From assembly GCA_963743475.1 (NCBI GenBank), contig CAVUPS010000001.1:857362-889361 (forward strand): 32,000 bases of DNA, in the 5' to 3' direction. Source of the stretch: an uncultured Solirubrobacterales bacterium (lineage in GTDB: Bacteria > Actinomycetota > Thermoleophilia > Solirubrobacterales > Solirubrobacteraceae). The position numbers were made by a program, and so were the translations under genes. The number at the start of each line of letters is the position of its first letter. Positions within the stretch are counted from its first letter, which is position 1. This document shows positions 9,812 through 21,898 of this stretch, piece after piece. Below the pieces are notes generated by a model. That model worked only from the letters and a program-made list of their open reading frames with translations. It was not told where the DNA came from and searched no databases.

Positions 9812-10510
9812 CTACTTCTTGGCCTGCTCGAAGTACGGGTTGGTGCCGGAGGCGTGGTCGGTGACGTCGACGACGCGGTTGATTTCGGGCACCGCCTGGG
9901 TGATGGCGACTTCGATGCCCTGGCTGAGGGTGACTGTGGCCATGCCGCAGCCCTGGCACCCTCCCCCTAGGCGTAGGTAGACGGTGGCGCCTTCGACGGC
10001 AGCGAGTTCGGCGTGTCCGCCGTGGCTGGCGATGGCGGGGTTGACGTCGCGGTCGAGCACCGCCATCACGCGACGCGCGAGATCGGTGTCCAGCCCGCCT
10101 GAGGGCGAGGGCCGAGGTGGACCCGGCGGGGGGCCGGGGCGGGCAGTTCCCGGGCTCATTGGCAGGGTCGGAAGTGGGACGGGCGGTCGAGAGGGTTTGT
10201 TCGGGTTGATGACCACGAAGCCGCCGCCCAGCCGGTTCTCGCTCCAGTCCACCGTGGCGCCGAGCAGCTTTGCGACGCTTTCGTGGGGCACCACGATGGC
10301 TAGATCACCCTGGTGCTGCACGGTGTCGCTGACGCGGACCTGAGTCTGCGGCTCCAGCGAAAGCGCGCAGACGTATTCGCCGTCGGCCGCGCCGGTGACC
10401 CGCACCGACAGGACGCAATCGCTCGGGTCGGGAGCGGCGGCGCGGAAGCCGCGCACGCGCTCGAGGGCTGACGCCGTGATGGCGAGGAGCGGTAGAGCTG
10501 CGTCGGCCAC
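9812..10510 (-). CDS. NfuA-like Fe-S cluster biogenesis protein (HesB/IscA-like N-domain, Pro-rich linker, Nfu C-domain)
   Basis: GTG start at 10510 (VADAALPLLAITASALERV). There is no Met before residue ~150, and any start further upstream would overlap the divergent gene. N-domain: ITASALERVRGF...VLSVRVTGAADGEYVCALSLE. Linker: NKPSRPPVPLPTLPMSPGTARPGPPPGPPRPSPSGG. Nfu domain: VNPAIASHGGHAELAAVEG...GGGCQGCGMATVTL. Confidence 0.8.
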   Translation of the reverse strand: MADAALPLLAITASALERVRGFRAAAPDPSDCVLSVRVTGAADGEYVCALSLEPQTQVRVSDTVQHQGDLAIVVPHESVAKLLGATVDWSENRLGGGFVVINPNKPSRPPVPLPTLPMSPGTARPGPPPGPPRPSPSGGLDTDLARRVMAVLDRDVNPAIASHGGHAELAAVEGATVYLRLGGGCQGCGMATVTLSQGIEVAITQAVPEINRVVDVTDHASGTNPYFEQAKK

Positions 10511-10527
10511 CGATCTACGATAGCGCC
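10511..10527. promoter_or_regulatory. 17-nt divergent intergenic region with two overlapping TANNNT -10-like hexamers, each 6 nt from a GTG start (candidate back-to-back leaderless promoters)
   Basis: Plus strand: TACGAT (10516-10521), then agcgcc, then GTG 10528. Minus strand: TATCGT (10522-10517), then agatcg, then GTG 10510. There is no room for a Shine-Dalgarno sequence on either side. Confidence 0.4.
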
Positions 10528-11775
10528 GTGGACCGCCTGCTCCTGATCCTGCCGTCGGCCACCTACCGGGCGCCGGACTTCCTGGCGGCAGCACGGGAGC
10601 TCGGCGTCGCGGTCACGGTCGCGTCCGAGCGCCGGGCGGCGATGTCGGCGGCGATGGGCGAACGTGCGCTCACCCTGCGGCTGTCGGACCCGGCAGTGGC
10701 GGCCGAGCAGATCGCCCAGCGTGCCCGGGAGACCCCGTTCGCTGCGGTCGTGGGCGTCGATGACCAGGGCGTGATGGCCGCCGCGCTGGGTGCCGAGCGC
10801 CTCGGCCTGCCCCACAACCCGCCGGCCGCCGTCGCCCGCACGCGCGACAAGGCGGCGATGCGCCGGGCGCTCGCGGAGGCCGGCGTCCCGCAACCGCGCT
10901 TCGCGCTGCTGCCCTATGGAGCCGACGTCGCGACGGTGGCGCGCGAGGTGGGCCTTCCCTGCGTCGTCAAGCCGCTGGGGCTGTCAGGCAGCCGGGGGGT
11001 GATCCGGGCGGATGACGGCGAGCAGGCGCGCTCGGCCGCCGAGCGCGTCCGGGGCATTCTCGCCGCCGCTCAGGAGCCGCCCGGCGCTCCGCTGCTGCTG
11101 GAGAGCTACCTGCCCGGCGCGGAGATGGCGATCGAGGGGCTGCTGCGCGGGGGCTGTCTGGAGGTGCTGGCAGTGTTCGACAAGCCCGACCCGCTCGAGG
11201 GGCCGTACTTCGAGGAGACGCTGTACGTGACGCCGTCGCGGCTGGCGACCGGCGTCCTGGCCGAGGTCGAGGCGGTCACTGCGCGGGCGGCGCGCGCGCT
11301 AGGGCTGCGGGAGGGACCGGTCCACGCCGAGCTGCGCGTGGACGGCGAGCGGGTGAGCGTCCTGGAGCTAGCGGCCCGGTCGATCGGCGGGCTGTGCTCT
11401 CGCGCGCTGCGCTTCGGTGCCGGCGTCAGCCTGGAGCAGGTGATCCTCCGCCACGCCTTGGGCCTCGGGCTCGAGGACCTGGCGCGGGAGTCGACGGCGT
11501 CTGGCGTGATGATGATCCCGATCCCCGAGGCTGGCGTGCTGCGCGCGGTCGAGGGGCAGGGGGACGCGCGGGCGGTGGAGGGCATCGGCGGGCTGGAGAT
11601 CACGATTGCCCGCGGCCGCGCCGTCGTGCCGCTGCCCGACGGCGACCGCTACCTAGGCTTCATATTCGCGCGCGCGGCGAGCGCCGACGCGGTCGAGCGC
11701 TCCCTGCGCTCCGCGCACGGCCGCCTACGGATCCGGATCGAGCCGCACGCGCCCGAGCCGGTCGCCGCGCGCTAG
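10528..11775 (+). CDS. ATP-grasp domain protein (carboxylate-amine/thiol ligase superfamily), substrate unknown
   Basis: MDRLLLILPSATYRAPDFLAAARELG pre-ATP-grasp domain. DKAAMRRALAEAGVPQP, LPCVVKPLGLSGSRGVIRADD, LLLESYLPGAEMAIEGLL and PVHAELRV...VLELAARSIGG follow the ATP-grasp layout. Confidence 0.8.
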   Translation: MDRLLLILPSATYRAPDFLAAARELGVAVTVASERRAAMSAAMGERALTLRLSDPAVAAEQIAQRARETPFAAVVGVDDQGVMAAALGAERLGLPHNPPAAVARTRDKAAMRRALAEAGVPQPRFALLPYGADVATVAREVGLPCVVKPLGLSGSRGVIRADDGEQARSAAERVRGILAAAQEPPGAPLLLESYLPGAEMAIEGLLRGGCLEVLAVFDKPDPLEGPYFEETLYVTPSRLATGVLAEVEAVTARAARALGLREGPVHAELRVDGERVSVLELAARSIGGLCSRALRFGAGVSLEQVILRHALGLGLEDLARESTASGVMMIPIPEAGVLRAVEGQGDARAVEGIGGLEITIARGRAVVPLPDGDRYLGFIFARAASADAVERSLRSAHGRLRIRIEPHAPEPVAAR

Positions 11776-11787
11776 CGTGGGTCACCC

Positions 11788-13194
11788 GTGCGCGTCCTGT
11801 TGATCTCCACCTACGAGCTGGGCCACCAGCCGTTGCACGTCGCGTCGCCGGCGGCCGCGCTGCGCCGCGCCGGGCACGATGTCCGCTGCCTGGATCTCAG
11901 CGTGCAGCCGTGGGACCACGGTGCGCTGGAATGGGCGCAGGCGGTCGGCTTCTCGGTGCCGATGCACACCGCCATGCGGCTGGCGCTCAGCGCCGGCCGC
12001 CGAGTGCGCCGCGAGCACCCCGGGCTGCCGATCTGCTTCTACGGGCTCTACGCCACGGTCAGCCGCGAGCTGGTAGAGCGTGAGCTCGCCGCGCGCGCGA
12101 TCGCTGGCGAGTACGAGCCGGCGCTCACGGCCTGGGTGGACGAGCTGGCGGCCCCGTGCGCGACCGCCCAGGCCGCCGGACGGCCGATCATCCACCTGCA
12201 GCGCGGCACCTTCGACCCGCCGGCGCGCGAGCTGCTGCCCGGACTCGAGCGCTACGCCCGCCTGGCGGTGGGCGGGGAGGAGCGGCTGGTCGGGTACGTC
12301 GAGGCCAGCCATGGGTGCGTGCATCGCTGCCGGCATTGCCCTGTCCCCGCCGTCTACGACGGGCGCATCCGCATCGTGCAGGCCGAGACCGTCCTGCGCG
12401 ACATCGAGCACCTGGCGGACATGGGCGCGCGGCACATCACGTTCGGCGATCCCGACTTCCTCAACGGCTGGCGCCACTCTCTGGCGATCGTACGTGCGCT
12501 CCACGAGCGCCGACCGGAGCTGACCTTCGACTGCACGACGAAGGTCGAGCACGTGCTCGAGCACGCCGACGTGTGGGATCAGATGGCCGCCTCGGGCTGC
12601 CTATTCGTTGTCAGCGCGCTGGAGAGCGTCAACGACGAGATCCTCGCCCGCCTCGACAAGGGCCACACCACCGCGCAAGCGGTGCAAGCCCTCGACCTGC
12701 TGCGCGAGCACGGAATCGAGACCAGGCCCTCGTTTATGCCCTTCACGCCGTGGACGACCCCGGCTGACGTGCTAGACATCGTCGACTTCGTCGCCGCGCA
12801 CGATCTGGTCGCCAACGTCGACCCGGTGCAGTACACGATCCGGCTGCTCGTGCCCGAGGACTCGCTACTGCTGGCGAGCGAGGACCTGCGCGAGCACCTC
12901 GGCCCCTACCAAGCCCAACGACTCAGCTACCCGTGGCGCTCAGCGGACCCAACAGCCGACCGGCTGCAAGGCCGCCTCAGCGCGCTGGTCCAACAGAGCG
13001 CCGCCGCGGAGGAAGCAATTGGCCTGACGTTCGCGCGCATCCGCACGGCGGTGCGCGAGGCCACCGGCGAAGCGGACGGCCCCGAGCCCGAGGCCATCCC
13101 CATGGGATCGACCGAGGGGAGGCCACGGCTCACCGAGCCGTGGTTCTGTTGAGCGGAGCCCACCGAGGACCAGTTCGGTCCTCTCACAGCGTGA
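11788..13194 (+). CDS. B12-binding-domain-type radical SAM protein with a C-terminal C-U-A-E-P tail; predicted selenoprotein (in-frame TGA 13150-13152 read as Sec), 468 aa if recoded
   Basis: GTG start 12 nt after the ATP-grasp stop. N-terminus MRVLLISTYELGHQPLHVASPAAALRRAGHDV. Radical SAM cluster motif EASHGCVHRCRHCPV (CxxxCxxC). The ORF track ends at TGA 13150-13152, but the codons read TGG TTC TGT TGA GCG GAG CCC = W F C U A E P. Thirteen sense codons (AEPTEDQFGPLTA) follow before TGA 13192-13194. I recall a RefSeq/NCBIfam family named CUAEP/CCAEP-tail radical SAM (seleno)protein; that is from memory and unverified. Confidence 0.8.
13165..13183 (+). other. Candidate bacterial SECIS hairpin (could also be a shared terminator hairpin of the convergent gene pair)
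   Basis: GAGGACC (13165-13171), loop AGTTC, GGTCCTC (13177-13183): a perfect 7-bp stem. It begins 12 nt after the UGA, and the apical loop containing GU sits about 20 nt after the UGA. The hairpin ends exactly at the stop codon of the convergent DsrE-like gene (13184-13186). Confidence 0.5.
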
Positions 13195-16033: not shown

Positions 16034-16981
16034 GTGGAGCGGCCTGCGCTCATCACCGCACTGCATCCGCTGGAGTCCCCGGCGCGTGTGAATCTCCCCG
16101 AGCGCGAACCATTTCGGATCGGACTCGTCCAACAGCGGTGGCATCCCGATCCCGAGGAACACGAGTCGGCGCTCGCCGATGGCATTCGCGTAGCGGCGGA
16201 GCAGGGCGCCGGCTTGGTCTGTCTTCAGGAGCTGACGCTGTCGCCGTACTTCGCGGTCAATCCCGACGCTGGCGATTGGCCGGCAGCCCATGCCGAGTAC
16301 ATTCCAACCGGCCCGACCACCGCGTTCGCTGCCCGGCTCGCCGCCGAGACCGGAGCGCACGTGCACGCATCGCTCTTCGAGCGAGCCGGAGAGGCAGAAC
16401 TGGGATACAACACCGCGATCTGCGTGTCGCCGTCCGGCGAGGTCGTGGCCCGGACGCGCAAGCAGCACATCCCCGTGACCGCCGGCTACTACGAGGATCG
16501 CTACTTCCGTCCCGGCGACTCCGGCTACCCGGTAGTGGAAATCGCCGGCGCCGGGTTTGGGTTCCCGACGTGCTGGGACCAATGGTTTCCCGAGCTGGCC
16601 CGCGCCTATTCGCTCGCTGGCGCGGAAGTGATCGTCTACCCGACCGCGATCGGCTCCGAGCCCGACCACCCCGAGTTCGACACCGAGCCGCTGTGGGAGC
16701 GTGTAATCAGCGCGAACGGGATAACGAACGGCACGTTCATGGTCGCCGTCAACCGCATTGGGTACGAGCCCCCCCTCACGTTCTACGGGTCGTCGTTCAT
16801 CTCAGACCCGTACGGCAGGATGCTCGTCCAGGCCCCGCGCGACCGTCCGGCGATACTGATCGCCGACCTCGACCTCGACCAGCGGCGCGACTGGCTTGAC
16901 CTGTTCCCATTCCTCGACACCCGCCAGCCGAGCCAGTACGCACCGCTCGTGGCCGAGCGCTCCCCCACCCGGCGGGATTGA
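16034..16981 (+). CDS. aguB: N-carbamoylputrescine amidase (CN-hydrolase/nitrilase superfamily)
   Basis: Starts 10 nt after aguA. Glu in VCLQELT, Lys in RKQHIP, Cys in PTCWDQWFPE. The pairing with aguA fits the agmatine-to-putrescine route. Confidence 0.9.
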   Translation: MERPALITALHPLESPARVNLPEREPFRIGLVQQRWHPDPEEHESALADGIRVAAEQGAGLVCLQELTLSPYFAVNPDAGDWPAAHAEYIPTGPTTAFAARLAAETGAHVHASLFERAGEAELGYNTAICVSPSGEVVARTRKQHIPVTAGYYEDRYFRPGDSGYPVVEIAGAGFGFPTCWDQWFPELARAYSLAGAEVIVYPTAIGSEPDHPEFDTEPLWERVISANGITNGTFMVAVNRIGYEPPLTFYGSSFISDPYGRMLVQAPRDRPAILIADLDLDQRRDWLDLFPFLDTRQPSQYAPLVAERSPTRRD

Positions 16982-17428
16982 CGCGGCCCGGCCAGGCGCG
17001 GCCGCCGAGGACAACCGAACCGAGGCGGACCTCGCGCTGGCGCGGCGACAGGGCGCCCCCTAACCGCGGAGACACGCGTCCTGTTCCATCGTGCCTCGAC
17101 TGGCGACCGGCGAATGCAACACGAACGCGACCCGGTACCCGGGAGTGCTGATCGCAAGCGGGGGCTGGGTCGTCGGCCTCACGCTCACTGTCCTCGCCCT
17201 CGCGCTGATTACCTTCCGCATGAGCCGACAGCGTCGGCACCCCAAACGACTAAATTTCGCGGCTCGATCATCCCGCCTGCGTGTACCCCTCCCGACGCTT
17301 CGCCGCGACGCCGCCGCCCTCGCGGACGGCCGACGCACGGCTCGGGTCCTCGTGGCTGGCTAGACCTTCGACGTAGAGCGTTCTCATCTCTTTCTCCAGG
17401 CCGGTTTATCCCGGCGCTTGCCGGCTCC

Positions 17429-17938
17429 TTATCCCCGCCGGGTTATCCCGGTGACCTCCCATGCCCGACCAAGGCCGCTGCCATAAAAAGCCACAATGAC
17501 GAGGACCAAGGCACGTTGCAGCGCGGCACTCTGGGTGTTCGCTAGGAGCGCCACGGCGAGGCCGAGCTGCACTGAGTAGCCCCCAACCGAAAGCGCCGCG
17601 AAGGCGAGATTCAGCCTTCTGGTTCGAGAGCTGCGGGAAAAATTTCCAGCCCGCTTTGCCCTTGGTATCAGCCGTCTGGTGGCCAGCAGGCCGACGGTTG
17701 CCATGGCGATGCTTGATAGCCCGAAGACGACTGAGCCCCCGGTCAAGGCCACGATCGAGACGAAGAAGATGTCTACCAGGACAACAAACGCGCTCCCGGC
17801 CAACACAGTTCGCAACTCCCGAGTTGTGGGATTCGCGTCGTCCGCGTTGACGACCGATACGGCGACGACGAGCAACCCCAAGATGGCGGCGGACGCGCCC
17901 GCGCTTGCGACGAAGAAGCTCTGATAGTGGCCCACCAC
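17429..17938 (-). CDS. Hypothetical integral membrane protein (about 4 predicted TM helices)
   Basis: GTG start. Hydrophobic stretches: AGASAAILGLLVVAVSVV, AGSAFVVLVDIFFVSIVALTGG, VVFGLSSIAMATVGLLA, LAFAALSVGGYSVQLGLAVALLA. No family recognised. Confidence 0.55.
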   Translation of the reverse strand: MVGHYQSFFVASAGASAAILGLLVVAVSVVNADDANPTTRELRTVLAGSAFVVLVDIFFVSIVALTGGSVVFGLSSIAMATVGLLATRRLIPRAKRAGNFSRSSRTRRLNLAFAALSVGGYSVQLGLAVALLANTQSAALQRALVLVIVAFYGSGLGRAWEVTGITRRG

Positions 17939-18103
17939 AACGCCACCCTATCGGCGGCTATCGTGGCGAGGAGTGCCCGACCGCGTTCTCCACGACAAGG
18001 ATCCCCCGGTGCCCAGCGGAGCGCTACTACGCGACCGGACCCGAGATCCCTGTTGCCCCGATTCTGGGCTTATGTCGAAGAACAGGCCCGCTACCGTTCG
18101 GTT

Positions 18104-18783
18104 ATGGCCCGGTCTGAACATTGCCGCGCGGACCCGCCGGGCCCGGAGCACCTGGCGGCAACCGCATTCATCGACGCTGGGCACCCGACCGTCCGCGCGT
18201 TCGCGGAGCGCGCGGTCGCCGACGCGGTGACGGGCCGGGAGCGGATCTCGCGGCTGTTCACCGCGGTGCGCGATGAGATCCGCTACGACCCCTACCAGCT
18301 CTCCCATAACCCGCGCGATTACATTGCCAGCAATGTAATCAGCCGCGGCGTGGCCTTCTGCATCCCCAAGGCCGTCGTCCTCACCGCTGCCGCCCGCTCG
18401 CTCGGGATCCCGGCGCGTCTGGGCTTCTCGGACGTAAAGAACCACCTGCAGTCCCCCAAACTCGCCGAGCGAATGGGCACCGACGTCTTCGTATTCCACG
18501 GCTACAGCGAGCTGTATGTCCACGGCACCTGGAGAAAAGCGACCCCGGCGTTCAACGCCGAACTGTGCGAGCGCTTCAGCGTCCCGCCGCTGACCTTCGA
18601 CGGATCTGCCGATGCGCTCCTTCATCCTTCGCCGCCGACGGCAGCGCCTACATGCAGTACATCCGCGACCGCGGCGTCTACGCCGACCTCCCCCTGGGAC
18701 CGATTCTCGAGGTCTTCGCGACCGCGTACCCCGGGTTCGGCACCGGCGAGGCGACAGGCGACGATCCCGCATTCTCCGCCTGA
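18104..18783 (+). pseudogene. Transglutaminase-like cysteine protease family gene with a -1 frameshift near 18620-18630 (or an assembly indel)
   Basis: The frame of ORF 17927..18880 carries the core (GVAFCIPKAVVLTAAARSLGIPARL...HGYSELYVHGTWRKATPAF...TFDGSADALLH). It then degenerates into SPPTAAPTCSTSATAAST. The protein-like continuation FAADGSAYMQYIRDRGVYADLPLGPILEVFATAYPGF is in the frame of ORF 18565..18783. Confidence 0.7.
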
Positions 18784-19301
18784 CAAGCTGACGTCCGACC
18801 TCGCTCGTTCGAGCACAGACCGGTCGCTGCAACCACGTGCGCTCCACTCAACCGACCGCTCACCAACGCCTGACCGTTGACGGGCGACGTCTCGCGCGGT
18901 CTACCGCTGATCGGGCGAGCTGCGCGACCGTGCGCGGGTGAATCGAGGGAACAGCGTCCTCTGCCACGGCGATCCGCAGCGTCCGCGCGGTAGTTCCAGA
19001 GCTGCTGCCCAGCATGCGAAGGGGCACGCTGTCGCCGATCCCGGCAGACTGTTGTCCCGCGTTCGCGCCGCCGAGAGCGCCAGGGGCCGGCGGGGTGGGC
19101 GATTCGCCAGGGCCGGTGGACCGCGGCCGTCACCGGCGCGCTGGCACCCGCTCGCTGACATCCTGGGCGGCCGCGATCGACAGCGCGCCTCACGAGCCGG
19201 TGCCACCGACTCGACACCACCAGTCGGCACCGGTCCACCGCACCCGTTCCCGACCTAACACCCCGGCACCCGATACCCCCAGCCGCTATTCTCCCATAAT
19301 T

Positions 19302-19742: not shown

Positions 19743-19776
19743 CCCGCGTGAGCAGGACGATTGGGACGAGCACGCG
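19690..19776 (+). pseudogene. N-terminal ~29-aa fragment of a small YciI-like protein family (GPxWDxSRxxREQxxWDEHA)
   Basis: GTG at 19690 gives VFFAVRLERGGPWDWSRDPREQDDWDEHA. The expected continuation (AAFMD...) is missing; the frame instead reads RLPRRARNAPNWSRSTR and then a stop. The family assignment is from memory. Confidence 0.35.
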
Positions 19777-19781
19777 CGGCT

Positions 19782-19937
19782 CCCGCGGCGGGCGAGGAAC
19801 GCGCCGAACTGGAGCAGGTCGACGCGGTAGGCCTCACGCGTGTTGCGCGTCAACCCGCGTTCCTGCTCGAGATGGGTCAGGAAGTCGAGCATGAGCTGCT
19901 CGAAGGTCTGAGCAGCTTCTCGCGAAACGGTAGTCAT
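19782..19937 (-). pseudogene. N-terminal ~52-aa fragment of a XerC/XerD-type tyrosine recombinase (core-binding SAM-like domain only)
   Basis: ATG at 19937 gives MTTVSREAAQTFEQLMLDFLTHLEQERGLTRNTREAYRVDLLQFGAFLARRG, which is typical of a phage-integrase N-terminal domain. After RRG the frame becomes SRACSSQSSCSRGS. No catalytic domain appears in any frame. Confidence 0.6.
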
Positions 19938-20297
19938 AACGCTCTGTTCGCCGGCACCGTCGCGATCCCTGCCGATTCTCACGCCGGGTCGCGTTCCACG
20001 GCGTCGGGGTCTGGTGCTGCTGCGCCGCCCGCGGGCCTCAGTGGCCGGCGGCGGTGCACACCAAACCGTGCGCGTGGCAGTGGCCGCGCGGTGTGTGGCC
20101 TTGAGGCGGCGTGCGAGGGCTCAGAGCGAGCCCGAGCCAGCGCGCTCGCTCGCGGTCAAGCATCGCGACATCGCCCCCGAACTGCAACCTTGGGATCGAT
20201 CCGGTCGGGCTCGGCGCGCGTTCCAGCCTGAAACGTCGCGAGCGTGCCGCGCGGCACGTGGCACCATGTGCCACCGCATGACCAACCAGCGAGTCAG

Positions 20298-21293
20298 GTG
20301 GAGCACGTGGAGCTGCTGATCGCGAACAACCCCGACCGGGACTCGCGGCTGCCGTTCCTGCTGCGGCTGCCGATCGGCGGCGGGATGGTGTTCCGCACGT
20401 CGGGGACGTGGCCGCGTACCCGAGCGCTGTACTGCCACCCCATCCCGCTCGACGAGTGGCCGCAGGCGCCGGAGATCGTCGACCGGGCCGCGGTCCGGTC
20501 GTGCGTGCGGCGCGGCGCGGCCATCGACCTGGTCCTCGACCGCGCCCGGGAGAACCGCTCGCAGATCGTGTTCACCACCGCGCGTGGCCGCGATGTCGTG
20601 TTCTGGCAGTCGCCCCGAACGCGCAGGCAGGCGCGCCCGAACGTGCGCATCCCGACCGCCCAGGCCGGCGGGATCCCCGAGCTCGAGATCATCGTCGACT
20701 CCCACGAGCAATACCCGTTCCGCTTCGCGTCCCAACAGGTCCGGACGATGCGACGGGCGCTGCCATGCGGCGACTACGGGCTCACCCTCAACGGGAGGCT
20801 GATCGCGTCCGTCGAGCGAAAGTCCCTGCCCGACCTGGTCGCCAGCCTGACCAGCGGGAAGCTGCGCTATGCGGTCGCAGAGCTGGCGGCGCTACCCCGG
20901 GCGGCGGTCGTGGTCGAGGATCGCTACTCGGCCGTGTTCAAGCTGACCCGCGTGCGACCGGCCCAGGTAGCCGACGGGCTCGCGGAGATCCAGATCCGGT
21001 GGCCCGCCGTACCGATCCTGTTCGCGGAGACGCGTCAACTGGCCGAGGAGTGGACGTACCGGTTCCTCGCCGCGGCCCGCCTGTGGGCTGACACCGAACC
21101 GGCCGCGATCGACCGACTGCCTCCTCTAAACGGTCCGACCGCGACCGACCTCGACCGGGCGCCGTCCGCACCCAACCCCTCGACCGCCGAGGTACGCGCC
21201 TGGGCACGGGCCAACGGCCTGACCATCCCCGACCGGGGAAGACTCAGGCCCGACGTCTGGGCGGCGTGGCGACGCGCCAACGCCCGCACATAG
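20298..21293 (+). CDS. Three-part protein: unknown N-domain, ERCC4/XPF-Mus81-type nuclease domain, and an Lsr2-like C-terminal DNA-binding domain
   Basis: Start is uncertain (GTG 20298 or 20307, ATG 20244). ERCC4 motifs: LEIIVDSHEQYPF, LPCGDYGL, ASVERKSLPDLVASL, AAVVVEDRY. The C-terminus STAEVRAWARANGLTIPDRGRLRPDVWAAWRRAN matches the Lsr2 DNA-binding domain pattern (IRxWAxxNGxxVxxRGRIxxxVxxAY), including the RGR motif. Confidence 0.8.
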   Translation: MEHVELLIANNPDRDSRLPFLLRLPIGGGMVFRTSGTWPRTRALYCHPIPLDEWPQAPEIVDRAAVRSCVRRGAAIDLVLDRARENRSQIVFTTARGRDVVFWQSPRTRRQARPNVRIPTAQAGGIPELEIIVDSHEQYPFRFASQQVRTMRRALPCGDYGLTLNGRLIASVERKSLPDLVASLTSGKLRYAVAELAALPRAAVVVEDRYSAVFKLTRVRPAQVADGLAEIQIRWPAVPILFAETRQLAEEWTYRFLAAARLWADTEPAAIDRLPPLNGPTATDLDRAPSAPNPSTAEVRAWARANGLTIPDRGRLRPDVWAAWRRANART

Positions 21294-21898
21294 CGGCCAA
21301 GGCTCGTTCCGGCCTCGCGCTCCGCGCCCCACACCACGCCCGAAGACGCGTTGAGGCTCCACAGGCGACGAAAGCCTCCAGACCCCCGCAACCCAACCTC
21401 CGGCCAACGTGCCGCTCGCCATCGGTGGCCCGGTCGCTCGGGGTCGCCGATGCCGCCATCGATCACGGAGCCACTCGCCAGGACCGGATTGACCGGGCCG
21501 CGCCGGGGTTCGGCCGACAGCACGTCGCACTACTACACATACATCTTCGATCGGGAGTGGGGTCCTTAGACCAAACGCGTACACCCCTTTGGCGCCAGCT
21601 GCGATCGATCGGCGATGACATCAACGACCGGGTGCTTGACGCTCAACTTAGTCACCATTATCGAGCACAGGTTTGCGATCTCATGCATAGGCTCCAATTG
21701 CTGTCTGTGCATGTACATTCATGACGTTCACCGAGCAACACTTGTCGACTTCGTGATAGTCGAGCGCCGCGGGCGGTGGCTGGCGACGCTTGTCGCTGCC
21801 GTCGACCTCGAACCGCGGTGCTCCTGTTCCGTCCCGGGGTGACCGAAAGCCTCTGTCGCCTCGACTCCTGACCTGGTCGGCAACGCGCGCGCGACGCG

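Follow-up and report, generated by a model that had tools for sequence, protein, structure and literature searches.

A mobile-element remnant patch holds an intact nuclease gene

The window, by which we mean the whole stretch of 32,000 nucleotides that was analysed, contains an intact nuclease gene within a patch of ~4.9 kb of decayed mobile-element remnants, and ordinary metabolic genes lie on either side of this patch. The remnants are a group II intron fragment, a frameshifted transglutaminase gene and an integrase stub. The features of the locus, in window positions, are:

19767-21389, no strand assigned: stretch common to the closest relatives (blastn; 93% DNA identity with locus L004 and 90% with locus L005)
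19782-19938, minus strand: 5'-end remnant of a XerC/D-like tyrosine recombinase gene, divergent from the nuclease gene (tblastn and sequence read)
20296-20303, plus strand: putative SD-like AGGTGGAG, ending 3 nt ahead of the GTG at 20307 (sequence read)
20307-21293, plus strand: corrected CDS of the three-module nuclease (328 aa plus stop)
21550-21750, no strand assigned: relatively AT-rich intergenic patch downstream of the gene (composition profile; 48-59% GC versus ~70%)

The integrase debris mentioned in the first-pass annotation is the XerC/D-like stub, of which only the first ~37-52 codons survive; tblastn with the intact 281-aa integrase of L004 matched residues 1-37 of that protein only (window 19892-19782). 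The recombinase gene is intact in L004 (Pfam Phage_int_SAM_1 and Phage_integrase) and in L005, and these two loci have a full 2.31-kb module of recombinase plus nuclease in common within otherwise different surroundings. The sole part of the window found in both is 19767-21389, which comprises what is left of the recombinase gene's start, 368 bp between the two genes, the nuclease gene itself and ~100 bp on its 3' side.

The AT-rich patch that had been noted beside the gene exists, and it recurs only weakly at other loci, 27% of which fall below the 10th percentile of random windows. With so mild an enrichment, we rejected the idea that such a patch regularly accompanies the gene. Within the patch, ATGTACATT resembles actinobacterial dif cores, and the Xer-like integrase stub is close by; no dif-like site recurred near the gene in a fuzzy scan of 85 loci (1.37 Mb), and the dif/Xer idea was dropped.

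The gene starts at position 20307 and is under purifying selection

An open reading frame of 349 aa with a GTG start spans exactly 20244-21293 on the plus strand. This frame, first proposed as the gene, is real, but its start moves to the GTG at 20307: homologues are ~328 aa long with the N-terminus M/V-ELLIA, and a start codon (mostly GTG) lies at the position aligned to window 20307 in all 85 loci examined. Hence, the real CDS is 20307-21293. Among the homologues at these 85 loci there is no conservation upstream of 20307, and the start at 20244 gives an in-frame extension without conservation. The SD-like AGGTGGAG is kept in L004 and L005.

Intact copies of the gene are present in 83 of the 85 loci, and the median dN/dS is ~0.24 (0.07-0.36 for the closest pairs). 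Since a value of about 0.24 reflects purifying selection, it shows that the gene is functional. Mean pairwise identity across classes is 78% in both core domains compared to 35% in the linker, a level that suits a DNA-repair enzyme better than a rapidly evolving immune gene. We dropped the seemingly low dS of ~0.7-0.9 between classes as a sign of recent horizontal transfer, since GC3 is near 90%, so that synonymous sites toggle between G and C only and saturation lies near 0.8.

The protein carries an ERCC4 nuclease domain

The modules and motifs of the protein (all on the plus strand, residues in 328-aa numbering) are:

20307-20672: N-terminal domain, aa 1-122 (AF2 model of this domain by itself: eight strands, pLDDT 79)
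20694-21065: ERCC4 (XPF/Mus81/Hef-type) nuclease domain, aa 130-253 (Pfam)
20697-20708: catalytic acidic pair D131...E134 within VDSHE (residue-by-residue alignment to Hef 1j22; conservation)
20769-20834: ERCC4 signature G155-D156-Y157 ... E170-R171-K172-x3-D176 (54-sequence alignment; GDY...ERK...D in Hef)
21117-21173: linker, aa 271-289, flexible and low in conservation (pLDDT <50 at residues 277-288)
21174-21278: Lsr2-type C-terminal DNA-binding domain, aa 290-324 (Pfam and alignment to 6qkq and 2kng)

We found that hmmscan against Pfam assigns the central domain to ERCC4 (PF02732) with E 3.8e-17 and 63 bits relative to a gathering score of 24; the match covers the whole profile (1-140) and residues 151-274 in 349-aa numbering, and the modelled fold extends to about aa 269. 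All of the motifs first quoted for the protein (VDSHE, CGDYG, VERKSLPDLVASL, VVVED and PDRGRL) are found in it. The VDSHE motif pairs with VDSRE of Hef in the alignment to 1j22, and the XPF/Hef catalytic set (D131, E134, G155-D156-Y157, E170-R171-K172 and D176) is invariant or nearly so in the 54-sequence family alignment.

Structure prediction of the protein gave a mean pLDDT of 80. With this model, Foldseek retrieved the Hef nuclease 1j24 (E 4e-7, TM 0.76 on the target) and then XPF and Mus81 among the top 16 matches, and a PDB sequence search also reaches Hef, at E 5e-4 with the single sequence and E 4e-7 with a profile. Hence, the ERCC4 assignment of the first-pass annotation holds by Pfam score, by catalytic residues and by fold.

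The nuclease fold and catalytic residues are the same as those of archaeal XPF/Hef (Aeropyrum pernix XPF, 2bgw; Pyrococcus furiosus Hef, 1j24), and the layout of archaeal XPF, i.e. nuclease, flexible linker and small minor-groove duplex binder, is also the same. The two differ in that archaeal XPF has (HhH)2 where the nuclease described here has an Lsr2-type domain, or another binder in its relatives, and in that the place of the helicase domain is taken by an extra, LigD-PE-like N-terminal barrel. In contrast to its archaeal counterparts, this nuclease is bacterial, encoded by a single gene and carried on mobile elements. No HhH family was found in the Pfam scan at E<=1. By analogy, the Lsr2-type tail probably takes the role that (HhH)2, which binds duplex DNA, has in XPF.

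The Lsr2-type tail is one of several C-terminal modules

The C-terminus matches the Pfam family Lsr2_DNA-bd (PF23359; E 1.8e-08, 34.1 bits relative to a threshold of 26.9) at residues 311-345 in 349-aa numbering, in agreement with the original Lsr2 assignment. A PDB sequence search retrieves the Lsr2 DNA-binding structures 2kng and 6qkq at E 0.03 (single sequence) and 0.003 (profile). In the model, the R310-G311-R312 loop (nt 21234-21242) is flanked by two helices (293-302 and 315-324), and this arrangement of ~35 aa is alike in Lsr2 of M. tuberculosis (2kng) and Streptomyces (6qkq).

Lsr2 is an actinobacterial xenogeneic silencer, and the tail differs from it in two respects. First, R310 and G311 are kept in at least 90% of the sequences of the 54-sequence alignment, whereas the third position of the RGR loop varies across the nuclease family (R/K/N/T). 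Since this residue varies, the strength of AT-rich binding may differ among members. Second, Lsr2 has an N-terminal oligomerisation domain, and no Lsr2 dimerisation/oligomerisation family was detected in the Pfam scan of the nuclease, whose N-terminus is a beta-barrel followed by the nuclease domain. Hence, the enzyme cannot bridge or coat DNA in the manner of Lsr2.

Relatives differ in place of the tail: P0246 has a winged helix, and P0240 and P0158 have either nothing there or a basic tail. The N-domain and the ERCC4 domain are the constant core, and the C-terminal module can be exchanged, the Lsr2-type tail being one of several. Therefore, AT-rich targeting, which had been suggested for the enzyme, is a trait of the present clade rather than the defining principle of the enzyme. 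A putative GIY-YIG motif was noticed by eye in the long C-terminal extension of P0227; Pfam gives no support for it at E<=0.01.

The N-terminal domain resembles the LigD phosphoesterase barrel

The most conserved module of the protein is its N-terminal domain, an arginine-rich, eight-stranded beta-barrel with 732 representatives at 50% clustering. Its sequence has no relatives in Pfam or the PDB even at E<=10 and none in NCBIfam. By structure, Foldseek against the PDB matched the domain to the LigD 3'-phosphoesterase (PE) structures 3p43 (probability 1.0, TM 0.57/0.57, 121 columns) and 5dmp (TM 0.55), and all further matches had a TM of 0.28 or lower. The LigD-PE matches have Foldseek probabilities of 0.96-1.0 and span nearly the full length of the domain, and the best match in BFVD is a domain of an 827-aa (LigD-sized) viral protein (TM 0.54). 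Hence, the first-pass statement that this domain matches nothing recognisable stands for its sequence and falls for its fold.

LigD-PE, a domain of non-homologous end joining, has an eight-stranded beta-barrel of like size and topology, and its Mn/phosphate site consists of three His, Asp, Arg and Tyr. In the N-domain there is no detectable sequence similarity to this enzyme and no invariant His or Tyr, either across 54 close sequences or in divergent members; instead, the domain is rich in invariant Arg, along with D74, D78 and E82. Homology to LigD-PE is conjectural. The modelled fold is therefore best described as LigD-3'-phosphoesterase-like with the histidine metal site of that enzyme absent. 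Since TM is 0.55-0.57, there is no sequence signal and the catalytic histidines are missing, the likeness holds at the level of the fold only, and its functional meaning is uncertain.

The nuclease belongs to a large family that is carried on plasmids

At least 6,989 database proteins match the nuclease, and the best 120 are ~75% identical to it (range 71-94%). A pattern scan found carriers in at least 322 of 185,579 species genomes, in several Actinomycetota classes; two copies are present in some MAGs, and several genomes have two or three. The nuclease is a member of a very large, highly conserved, uncharacterised actinobacterial family and not, as it had first seemed, a special fusion of the present genome. 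We found 22 full-length copies on plasmids, and the plasmid carriers include M. intracellulare/chimaera, M. avium and the pMUM-type plasmids of the M. ulcerans group. There was no tblastn match in 50,697 phage records, and we rejected a phage origin on this basis.

High conservation, purifying selection and the metabolic genes at the outer flanks of the window would suit a vertically inherited, chromosomal housekeeping repair nuclease of Actinomycetota. We consider such an origin highly improbable, given the patchy distribution among species genomes (322/185,579), the lack of synteny, the several copies in some genomes and the carriage on plasmids and transposons, and the survey of genomic contexts already contradicts it. 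The first-pass annotation had named conserved housekeeping repair contexts as the finding that would speak against a link to foreign DNA; instead, no neighbour is conserved, and homologues are located on plasmids and beside recombinases and transposons.

The gene is a self-contained unit beside many unrelated recombinases

DNA homology between loci reaches no farther than ~30 bp before the gene and ~100 bp after it, and no neighbouring gene is conserved among the loci compared, so the unit is a self-contained single gene. These borders, together with the lack of a conserved partner, also led us to reject a type II toxin-antitoxin module. The ~100 bp of downstream homology splits into subgroup-specific clusters without a common motif, which indicates relatedness within subgroups rather than a common site, and a conserved 3' element was discarded.

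The gene adjoins at least three unrelated types of tyrosine integrase, serine resolvases, Tn3, Tn554-like (DUF6262), Tn7-like and IS21 elements. Recombinases account for 15 of 300 proteins within 2.5 kb of the gene, compared to at most one per recombinase family among 150 controls 6-9.5 kb away, a modest enrichment among loci that are not phylogenetically independent. On a 21-kb plasmid of M. intracellulare, the gene lies in an apparent operon (resolvase, two hypothetical genes, ERCC4), and on pFRP1-1 a recombinase and the Tn3 tnpA flank it. At many loci, no gene of a mobile element lies within 2.5 kb.

We considered whether the gene is an autonomous selfish element, homing-endonuclease-like or insertion-sequence-like, that moves itself, since homology between loci stops sharply at the gene borders and several genomes carry two or three copies. 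However, the unit is bordered neither by terminal repeats, inverted or direct, nor by a tRNA or a terminator, and on these grounds we rejected an autonomous element of this kind; there is also no recurrent dif-like or att-like site. The flanks are non-homologous between loci, contrary to homing, and near-identical copies (L030/L041 and L004/L005) include a neighbouring recombinase able to explain their movement. Among the loci compared, we saw no pairs of empty and filled sites with precise single-gene insertion and target duplication. Self-movement is thus very hard to credit.

Adjacency to recombinases also bears on a role as a DNA-processing or repair factor that serves the carrier plasmid or transposon, by trimming 3' flaps or resolving branched intermediates in replication, transfer, integration or end-joining, with the LigD-PE-like barrel recognising a 3' end. 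XPF-ERCC1 (yeast Rad1-Rad10) acts so in single-strand annealing and microhomology-mediated joining. The repeated, tight adjacency to unrelated site-specific recombinases and transposases, sometimes in one apparent operon, argues for this role, as do the fold that the N-domain has in common with a domain of an end-joining enzyme, the high conservation typical of repair enzymes and a LigA gene near the nuclease gene on a Streptomyces plasmid. Yet the partner recombinases are unrelated and vary in orientation and distance, which fits placement as cargo better than a functional pair; moreover, the many copies distant from any mobile-element gene and the missing PE catalytic site count against it. 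We regard service to the carrier element as a tenable but doubtful explanation.

A minority of copies lie near defence genes

Nine of the 85 loci have a Wadjet operon beside or around the gene; at least three arrangements occur, and some copies are inside a Wadjet operon, between jetA and jetB. This association was seen in mycobacteria only, a group in which both Wadjet and VapBC are common. Other defence-like neighbours are patatin, VapC, HipA and SNF2, and a recognised defence gene is nearby in about 10-15% of the examined loci (a small survey of 85 loci in which kinship was ignored). Hence, on the question raised in the first-pass annotation of whether homologues cluster in defence islands or prophages, some copies lie near Wadjet, most have no recognised defence neighbour and none were found in the phage records. 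The link of the family to foreign DNA is real, since homologues are on plasmids, near recombinases and transposons, and in some mycobacteria they are in Wadjet or toxin-antitoxin islands.

No model of PADLOC v2.0.0, whose library dates from 2023, matches the enzymatic part of the nuclease. The matches are confined to the tail, which hits the MTase_II model PDLC03328, and to a faint match to DrmC (E 0.0025). PDLC03328 describes a type II methyltransferase rather than a nuclease, and it has the same Lsr2-type tail (E 5e-15, model positions 529-570 of 587), with the similarity limited to that tail.

These results bear on a single-gene immune nuclease that protects the host or the resident mobile element, in which the Lsr2-type domain would find AT-rich phage or plasmid DNA and ERCC4 would cut its intermediates. 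Several observations favour such an enzyme: it travels on plasmids and transposons, it lies in variable regions where Wadjet, patatin, VapC, HipA and SNF2 genes are found, it is absent from phages, it is self-contained with its own conserved 5' region, and its tail is also on the restriction-modification methyltransferase model of PADLOC, so the module is reused in defence enzymes. However, no PADLOC model matches the nuclease itself, a recognised defence gene is near only about 10-15% of the loci examined, and the sequence is more conserved than is usual for an immune gene. In addition, ERCC4 nucleases cut structures rather than sequences, which leaves the distinction between self and non-self unexplained, and relatives without the Lsr2 tail could not use AT-richness as a signal. 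We therefore treat an immune nuclease as possible, though short of probable. A defence role is plausible, and processing of mobile-element DNA is about as likely.

We also weighed counter-defence or counter-silencing, in which the tail competes with host Lsr2 or the enzyme interferes with plasmid restriction by Wadjet. The plasmids that carry the gene occur in genera whose hosts encode both Lsr2 and Wadjet, and the copies between jetA and jetB could reflect disruptive insertion. But the Wadjet genes around these insertions look intact, a competitor of Lsr2 would need neither an intact, strongly conserved nuclease nor the N-domain, and some relatives have no Lsr2 tail. This explanation is improbable.

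A predicted structure-specific endonuclease of mobile DNA

On balance, we lean toward describing the protein as a predicted-active, three-module endonuclease of the XPF/Mus81/Hef (ERCC4) type that belongs to a large, horizontally mobile Actinomycetota family. Judging by its family, the ERCC4 domain would cut one strand at a junction of single-stranded and duplex DNA, such as a flap, fork, D-loop or nicked junction, and the enzyme is probably a homodimer, as are other ERCC4 family members. The Lsr2-type tail, whose domain identity is clear, would anchor the enzyme on duplex DNA through its flexible linker and may bias it to AT-rich tracts, which mark foreign or regulatory DNA in hosts of ~70% GC. 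The LigD 3'-phosphoesterase domain grips a recessed 3' end; in the nuclease, the arginine-rich N-barrel may hold a DNA end or flap and set substrate specificity.

The gene itself is a self-contained accessory cassette on plasmids, transposons and integrative modules that accumulates in variable defence and toxin-antitoxin regions, and its benefit would therefore lie in conflict over mobile DNA or the maintenance of that DNA rather than in core chromosome repair. Since it is a passenger of plasmids and transposons, the nuclease probably acts on foreign or branched DNA. Between defence or inter-element competition and the processing of mobile-element DNA, we give the former slightly more weight. 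If the former is correct, the recognition of AT-rich foreign DNA by xenogeneic silencers would be tied to DNA cleavage; if the latter is, the enzyme would take the vacant place of a 3'-flap endonuclease in the end-joining or annealing pathways of actinobacteria.

More speculatively, and with considerable doubt, the endonuclease may be a single-gene xenogeneic cutter on mobile elements, i.e. the destructive counterpart of xenogeneic silencing. An Lsr2-type sensor of AT-rich DNA, replaced by another binder in sister clades, would together with an end-binding barrel derived from LigD-PE aim such a cutter at replication or recombination intermediates of incoming foreign DNA. If so, plasmids, transposons and their hosts would be immune to rival elements or phages, and no functional bacterial lineage of XPF/Mus81-family nucleases would have been described before. 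Eukaryotic and archaeal XPF/Mus81-type nucleases have been studied, and no bacterial lineage is known to have been characterised, as far as the literature searched shows.

This lineage matters since it comprises thousands of strongly conserved sequences on many unrelated plasmids and transposons of Actinomycetota, including clinically relevant mycobacteria. A full-text literature search found no paper that joins 'ERCC4' with 'Lsr2' or that describes the nuclease family. The combination of a LigD-phosphoesterase-like barrel, an ERCC4 nuclease and an Lsr2-type binder is previously undescribed, and the barrel is not represented in Pfam. Databases already label members as 'ERCC4 domain-containing protein', and the RefSeq name of some members, 'histone-like nucleoid-structuring protein Lsr2', is misleading.

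An ERCC4 nuclease with an Lsr2-type tail

The open reading frame that the first-pass annotation placed at 20244..21293 (+) is present in our ORF listing (349 aa, GTG start), but its start needed correction: homologues are shorter, at ~328 aa, the start codon (mostly GTG) aligned with window position 20307 in all 85 homologous loci examined, and no conservation was found upstream of that position in these loci. Hence, the coding sequence is 20307..21293, and residues are numbered from this start. The 5' region is short, conserved and differs by subgroup. In most loci, we found one of two subgroup-specific motifs, GGTGGAAGGCTGAGAGC-GTG and GGCAGACTCGGGCT(C/T)-GTG, 20-30 nt upstream of the start; both hold an nAnnnT hexamer spaced 6-7 nt from the start codon, which would be the geometry expected of leaderless actinobacterial transcripts. 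In the window's subgroup, an SD-like AGGTGGAG precedes the 20307 start in place of these motifs.

The ERCC4 domain proposed for the center of the protein was borne out by Pfam, where the entire profile matched at 63 bits (threshold 24), and by the XPF/Hef catalytic set D131, E134, G155-D156-Y157, E170-R171-K172 and D176, which shows little or no variation across 54 aligned sequences. In structure, the AlphaFold2 model (mean pLDDT 80) matches Hef 1j24 (TM 0.76 on target), XPF and Mus81; active site and fold are both intact. The C-terminal tail is a bona fide Lsr2-type DNA-binding domain, as also proposed: Pfam Lsr2_DNA-bd spans the final 35 residues at 34.1 bits (threshold 26.9), and the model forms two helices flanking an R310-G311-R312 loop. 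By sequence, the PDB entries matched were the nuclease domain of Pyrococcus Hef and, for the DNA-binding domain of Lsr2, structures 2kng and 6qkq. In NCBIfam, Hef and Rad1 matched in part only, via the nuclease domain; hence, no curated model covers this nuclease family.

With its ERCC4 domain, motif and fold, the enzyme can be likened in mode of action to short archaeal XPF; however, it lacks the (HhH)2 domain, carrying the Lsr2-type domain where archaeal XPF has this minor-groove binder, and its two extra modules are absent from characterized members. Nor is it Lsr2, since it has no oligomerization domain. The RefSeq name 'histone-like nucleoid-structuring protein Lsr2' on NZ_CP109056.1, NZ_CP118327.1 and other plasmid records draws on the 35-aa tail alone and is probably a misannotation, since the members so named are ERCC4 nucleases without the Lsr2 oligomerization domain. 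The literature searched contains neither ERCC4 together with Lsr2 nor a description of this family. The family, known here from sequence and models, is a real, widespread lineage with an undescribed domain.

The N-terminal domain is a PE-like barrel

Conservation along the protein is highest in the N-domain, whose mean pairwise identity (78%) equals that of the nuclease domain; the Lsr2 tail reaches 68% and the linker 35%. The first-pass annotation recognized no match for it, and this stands for sequence (no match in Pfam or PDB even at E<=10) but not for fold. Structure searches with the modeled domains gave a Hef-like fold for ERCC4 and, for the N-domain modeled alone (pLDDT 79), an eight-stranded beta-barrel like the LigD 3'-phosphoesterase (PE). 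In the PDB, the sole good matches were the archaeal LigD PE structures 3p43 (probability 1.0, TM 0.57 in both normalizations, 121 of 122 columns) and 5dmp (TM 0.55), all others having TM 0.28 or lower. A viral structure library gave a single good match (TM 0.54), a domain within an 827-aa protein, a size that fits LigD-type enzymes and makes it a candidate LigD-type protein only.

Three histidines contribute to the PE metal/phosphate site, along with one aspartate, one arginine and one tyrosine. We found no invariant histidine or tyrosine in the N-domain, either in the 54-sequence alignment or in divergent members; its invariant residues are instead a dozen arginines plus D74, D78 and E82. Hence, we call the domain a PE-like fold and do not count it among the PE enzymes, with which it has only the fold in common. 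As a module, it probably binds nucleic acid (an end or flap).

A constant core with an exchangeable tail

Using the N-domain alone as HMMER query in an exhaustive search of 1.84 billion representatives (E<=0.001), we found 732 matches. Ten divergent members were examined, eight of which look complete enough to judge; six of these eight have N-domain plus ERCC4 by Pfam, with differing C-termini.

Divergent members
P0246: MarR/DeoR-type winged helix at the C-terminus
P0227 (450 aa): long C-terminal extension of ~180 aa (residues ~270-450) replacing the Lsr2 tail
P0240, P0158: short basic tail or nothing at the C-terminus
P0212: no Pfam match, ERCC4-like sequence visible by eye
P0263: no Pfam match, sequence degenerating past the N-domain
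P0201, P0204: appear truncated

Hence, the Lsr2-type domain, which is attached via a disordered linker, is one of several interchangeable DNA binders. The P0227 cluster includes an Acidimicrobiia MAG protein, and the extension of P0227 shows GIY...YVGKA-like motifs by eye, with no Pfam match at E<=0.01. An Lsr2-type DNA-binding domain also lies at the C-terminal end of a type II methyltransferase model in the PADLOC defense library, PDLC03328 (MTase_II; positions 529-570 of 587), which points to a reusable module on DNA enzymes of Actinomycetota.

Judging from what is known of these families, the enzyme would cut as a dimer, structure-specifically, at single-strand/duplex junctions, the tail would anchor it to duplex with an AT-rich bias, and the N-barrel would hold a DNA end or flap.

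A widespread, self-contained gene under selection

Searching 5.8 billion proteins gave at least 6989 matches, the best 120 of which are 71-94% identical, ~328 aa long and nearly all with both Pfam domains. Scanning one genome per species gave 322 loci, the closest copy (92%) being from Solirubrobacterales; the best 80 fall in Mycobacterium, Mycolicibacterium, Rhodococcus, Nocardia, Streptosporangiaceae, Frankiaceae, Nakamurella, Pseudonocardiales, Acidimicrobiia and Solirubrobacterales. A second copy occurs in several MAGs. The gene is under purifying selection (83 of 85 copies intact, dN/dS ~0.24). Recent transfer, read from apparently low between-class dS, was set aside because dS is probably saturated at a GC3 near 90%.

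In all-against-all blastn, the nuclease gene of each locus aligned with that of every other at >=70% DNA identity, and for most pairs homology reaches no further than ~30 bp before the start and ~100 bp past the stop. Hence, the gene is a self-contained unit; that it is an autonomous selfish element is very improbable. Neighbor clustering found no conserved partner gene, the biggest cluster covering 8 of 85 loci. Some copies sit among ordinary metabolic genes (e.g. Nocardioides L001). A housekeeping repair role is likewise highly unlikely.

Carriage on plasmids and mobile elements

The nuclease gene is carried on plasmids and mobile elements. Using tblastn, we found 22 full-length plasmid copies, and neighbors include recombinases and transposases.

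Carrier plasmids
Recurrent 21-kb plasmid of M. intracellulare/chimaera
M. avium plasmids
pMUM-type plasmids of M. liflandii, M. ulcerans and M. pseudoshottsii
Megaplasmids of Rhodococcus, Pseudonocardia and Streptomyces

Neighbors
281-aa XerC/D-like recombinase, divergently transcribed (L004, L005, window)
345-aa integrase
730-aa tyrosine recombinase plus DUF6262, Tn554-like in appearance
Serine resolvase immediately upstream, part of a 1.7-kb unit (L030/L041)
Tn3 transposase (L006)
Tn3 transposase and recombinase, with the nuclease gene between (Pseudonocardia pFRP1-1)
TnsA of a Tn7-like tnsABC-tniQ element (Rhodococcus pDK3)
IS21 and tyrosine recombinase (pMUM002)
DDE transposases and ParE/Phd (L003)

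For the 300 proteins lying up to 2.5 kb from the gene, Pfam counted 11 Phage_integrase and 4 Resolvase, along with PIN, Phd, Mut7-C, Arr and Wadjet proteins, whereas 150 control proteins from these loci, 6-9.5 kb distant, included each recombinase family at most once. The data favor an accessory function tied to mobile DNA. Processing or repair of the mobile element's DNA is tentatively possible, only slightly less so than a role in defense or inter-element conflict; against its being a dedicated partner of recombinases, these are unrelated to each other and variably placed relative to the gene.

The resolvase unit (~200-aa serine resolvase, then the nuclease gene) occurs twice in one MAG, the two copies being 99% identical, extends about -689 to +84 around the gene, is common also to L028, L055 and L062, and is possibly a small mobile module.

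The window copy

In the window, metabolic genes border a ~4.9-kb stretch.

Features of the stretch and its borders
to 16981: agmatine deiminase and CN-hydrolase genes
17189-17384 (-): group II intron RNA fragment, domains D1-D4 (Rfam RF02005, 76 bits vs 49, E 9e-20, full model)
17927-18880 (+): transglutaminase-like gene (Pfam Transglut_core), appears frameshifted
within the stretch: unassigned ORF
19782-19938 (-): 5' stub of Xer-like recombinase
20307..21293 (+): nuclease gene, intact
within the stretch: relatively AT-rich patch, 200 bp
from 21899 (-): polysaccharide deacetylase and SulP genes

What was first described as integrase debris is thus the Xer-like stub, and the AT-rich patch reported with it lies in the same stretch. 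Only 19767-21389 is common to the window and its nearest relatives, L004 and L005, which have a complete 2.31-kb recombinase plus nuclease module in common and differ in their surroundings. Hence, the window copy looks like a passenger that has outlived the decay of its integrative module and is still under selection.

Between stub and nuclease start lies a GC-rich region of 368 bp (19939-20306); it is 90-93% conserved with L004 and L005 and may hold divergent promoters or the Xer-like enzyme's recombination site. The RF02005 match, ~3 kb away from the nuclease gene, appears to be a truncated group II intron, with no reverse-transcriptase ORF evident since the CN-hydrolase gene ends at 16981. 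The transglutaminase-like gene, either a frameshifted pseudogene or a long-read assembly indel error, runs into low-complexity sequence and has a plausible continuation at 18565-18783 (+) in another frame. Elsewhere, window 10000-12500 has a GC of 71-76% (~66% around it) and overlapping long ORFs on both strands.

Wadjet and other defense neighbors

The first-pass annotation raised clustering in defense islands or prophages. In the survey, a Wadjet (JetABCD) operon adjoins or contains the gene in 9 of 85 loci; tblastn found no copy in 50 697 phage records, and recognized defense genes are near a minority of copies only. A role in defense or inter-element conflict is tentatively possible; against a classical immune gene stand this minority, the lack of any PADLOC model matching the enzyme, and its unusually conserved sequence. 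Counter-defense or counter-silencing is unlikely. Other neighbors include VapC, HipA, JetD and an SNF2/DUF3670 helicase.

The nine Wadjet-linked loci are all from Mycobacterium or Mycolicibacterium; they show at least three arrangements and two types of Wadjet sequence. The order jetA-nuclease-jetB occurs in L027 (8481-16216), L045 (7392-15749) and L063 (7393-15759); a gene for a patatin-like phospholipase shares the jetA-jetB interval in two of these, to one side of the nuclease gene in L027 and to the other in L063. Placement within Wadjet could reflect an insertion hotspot or an accessory cassette.
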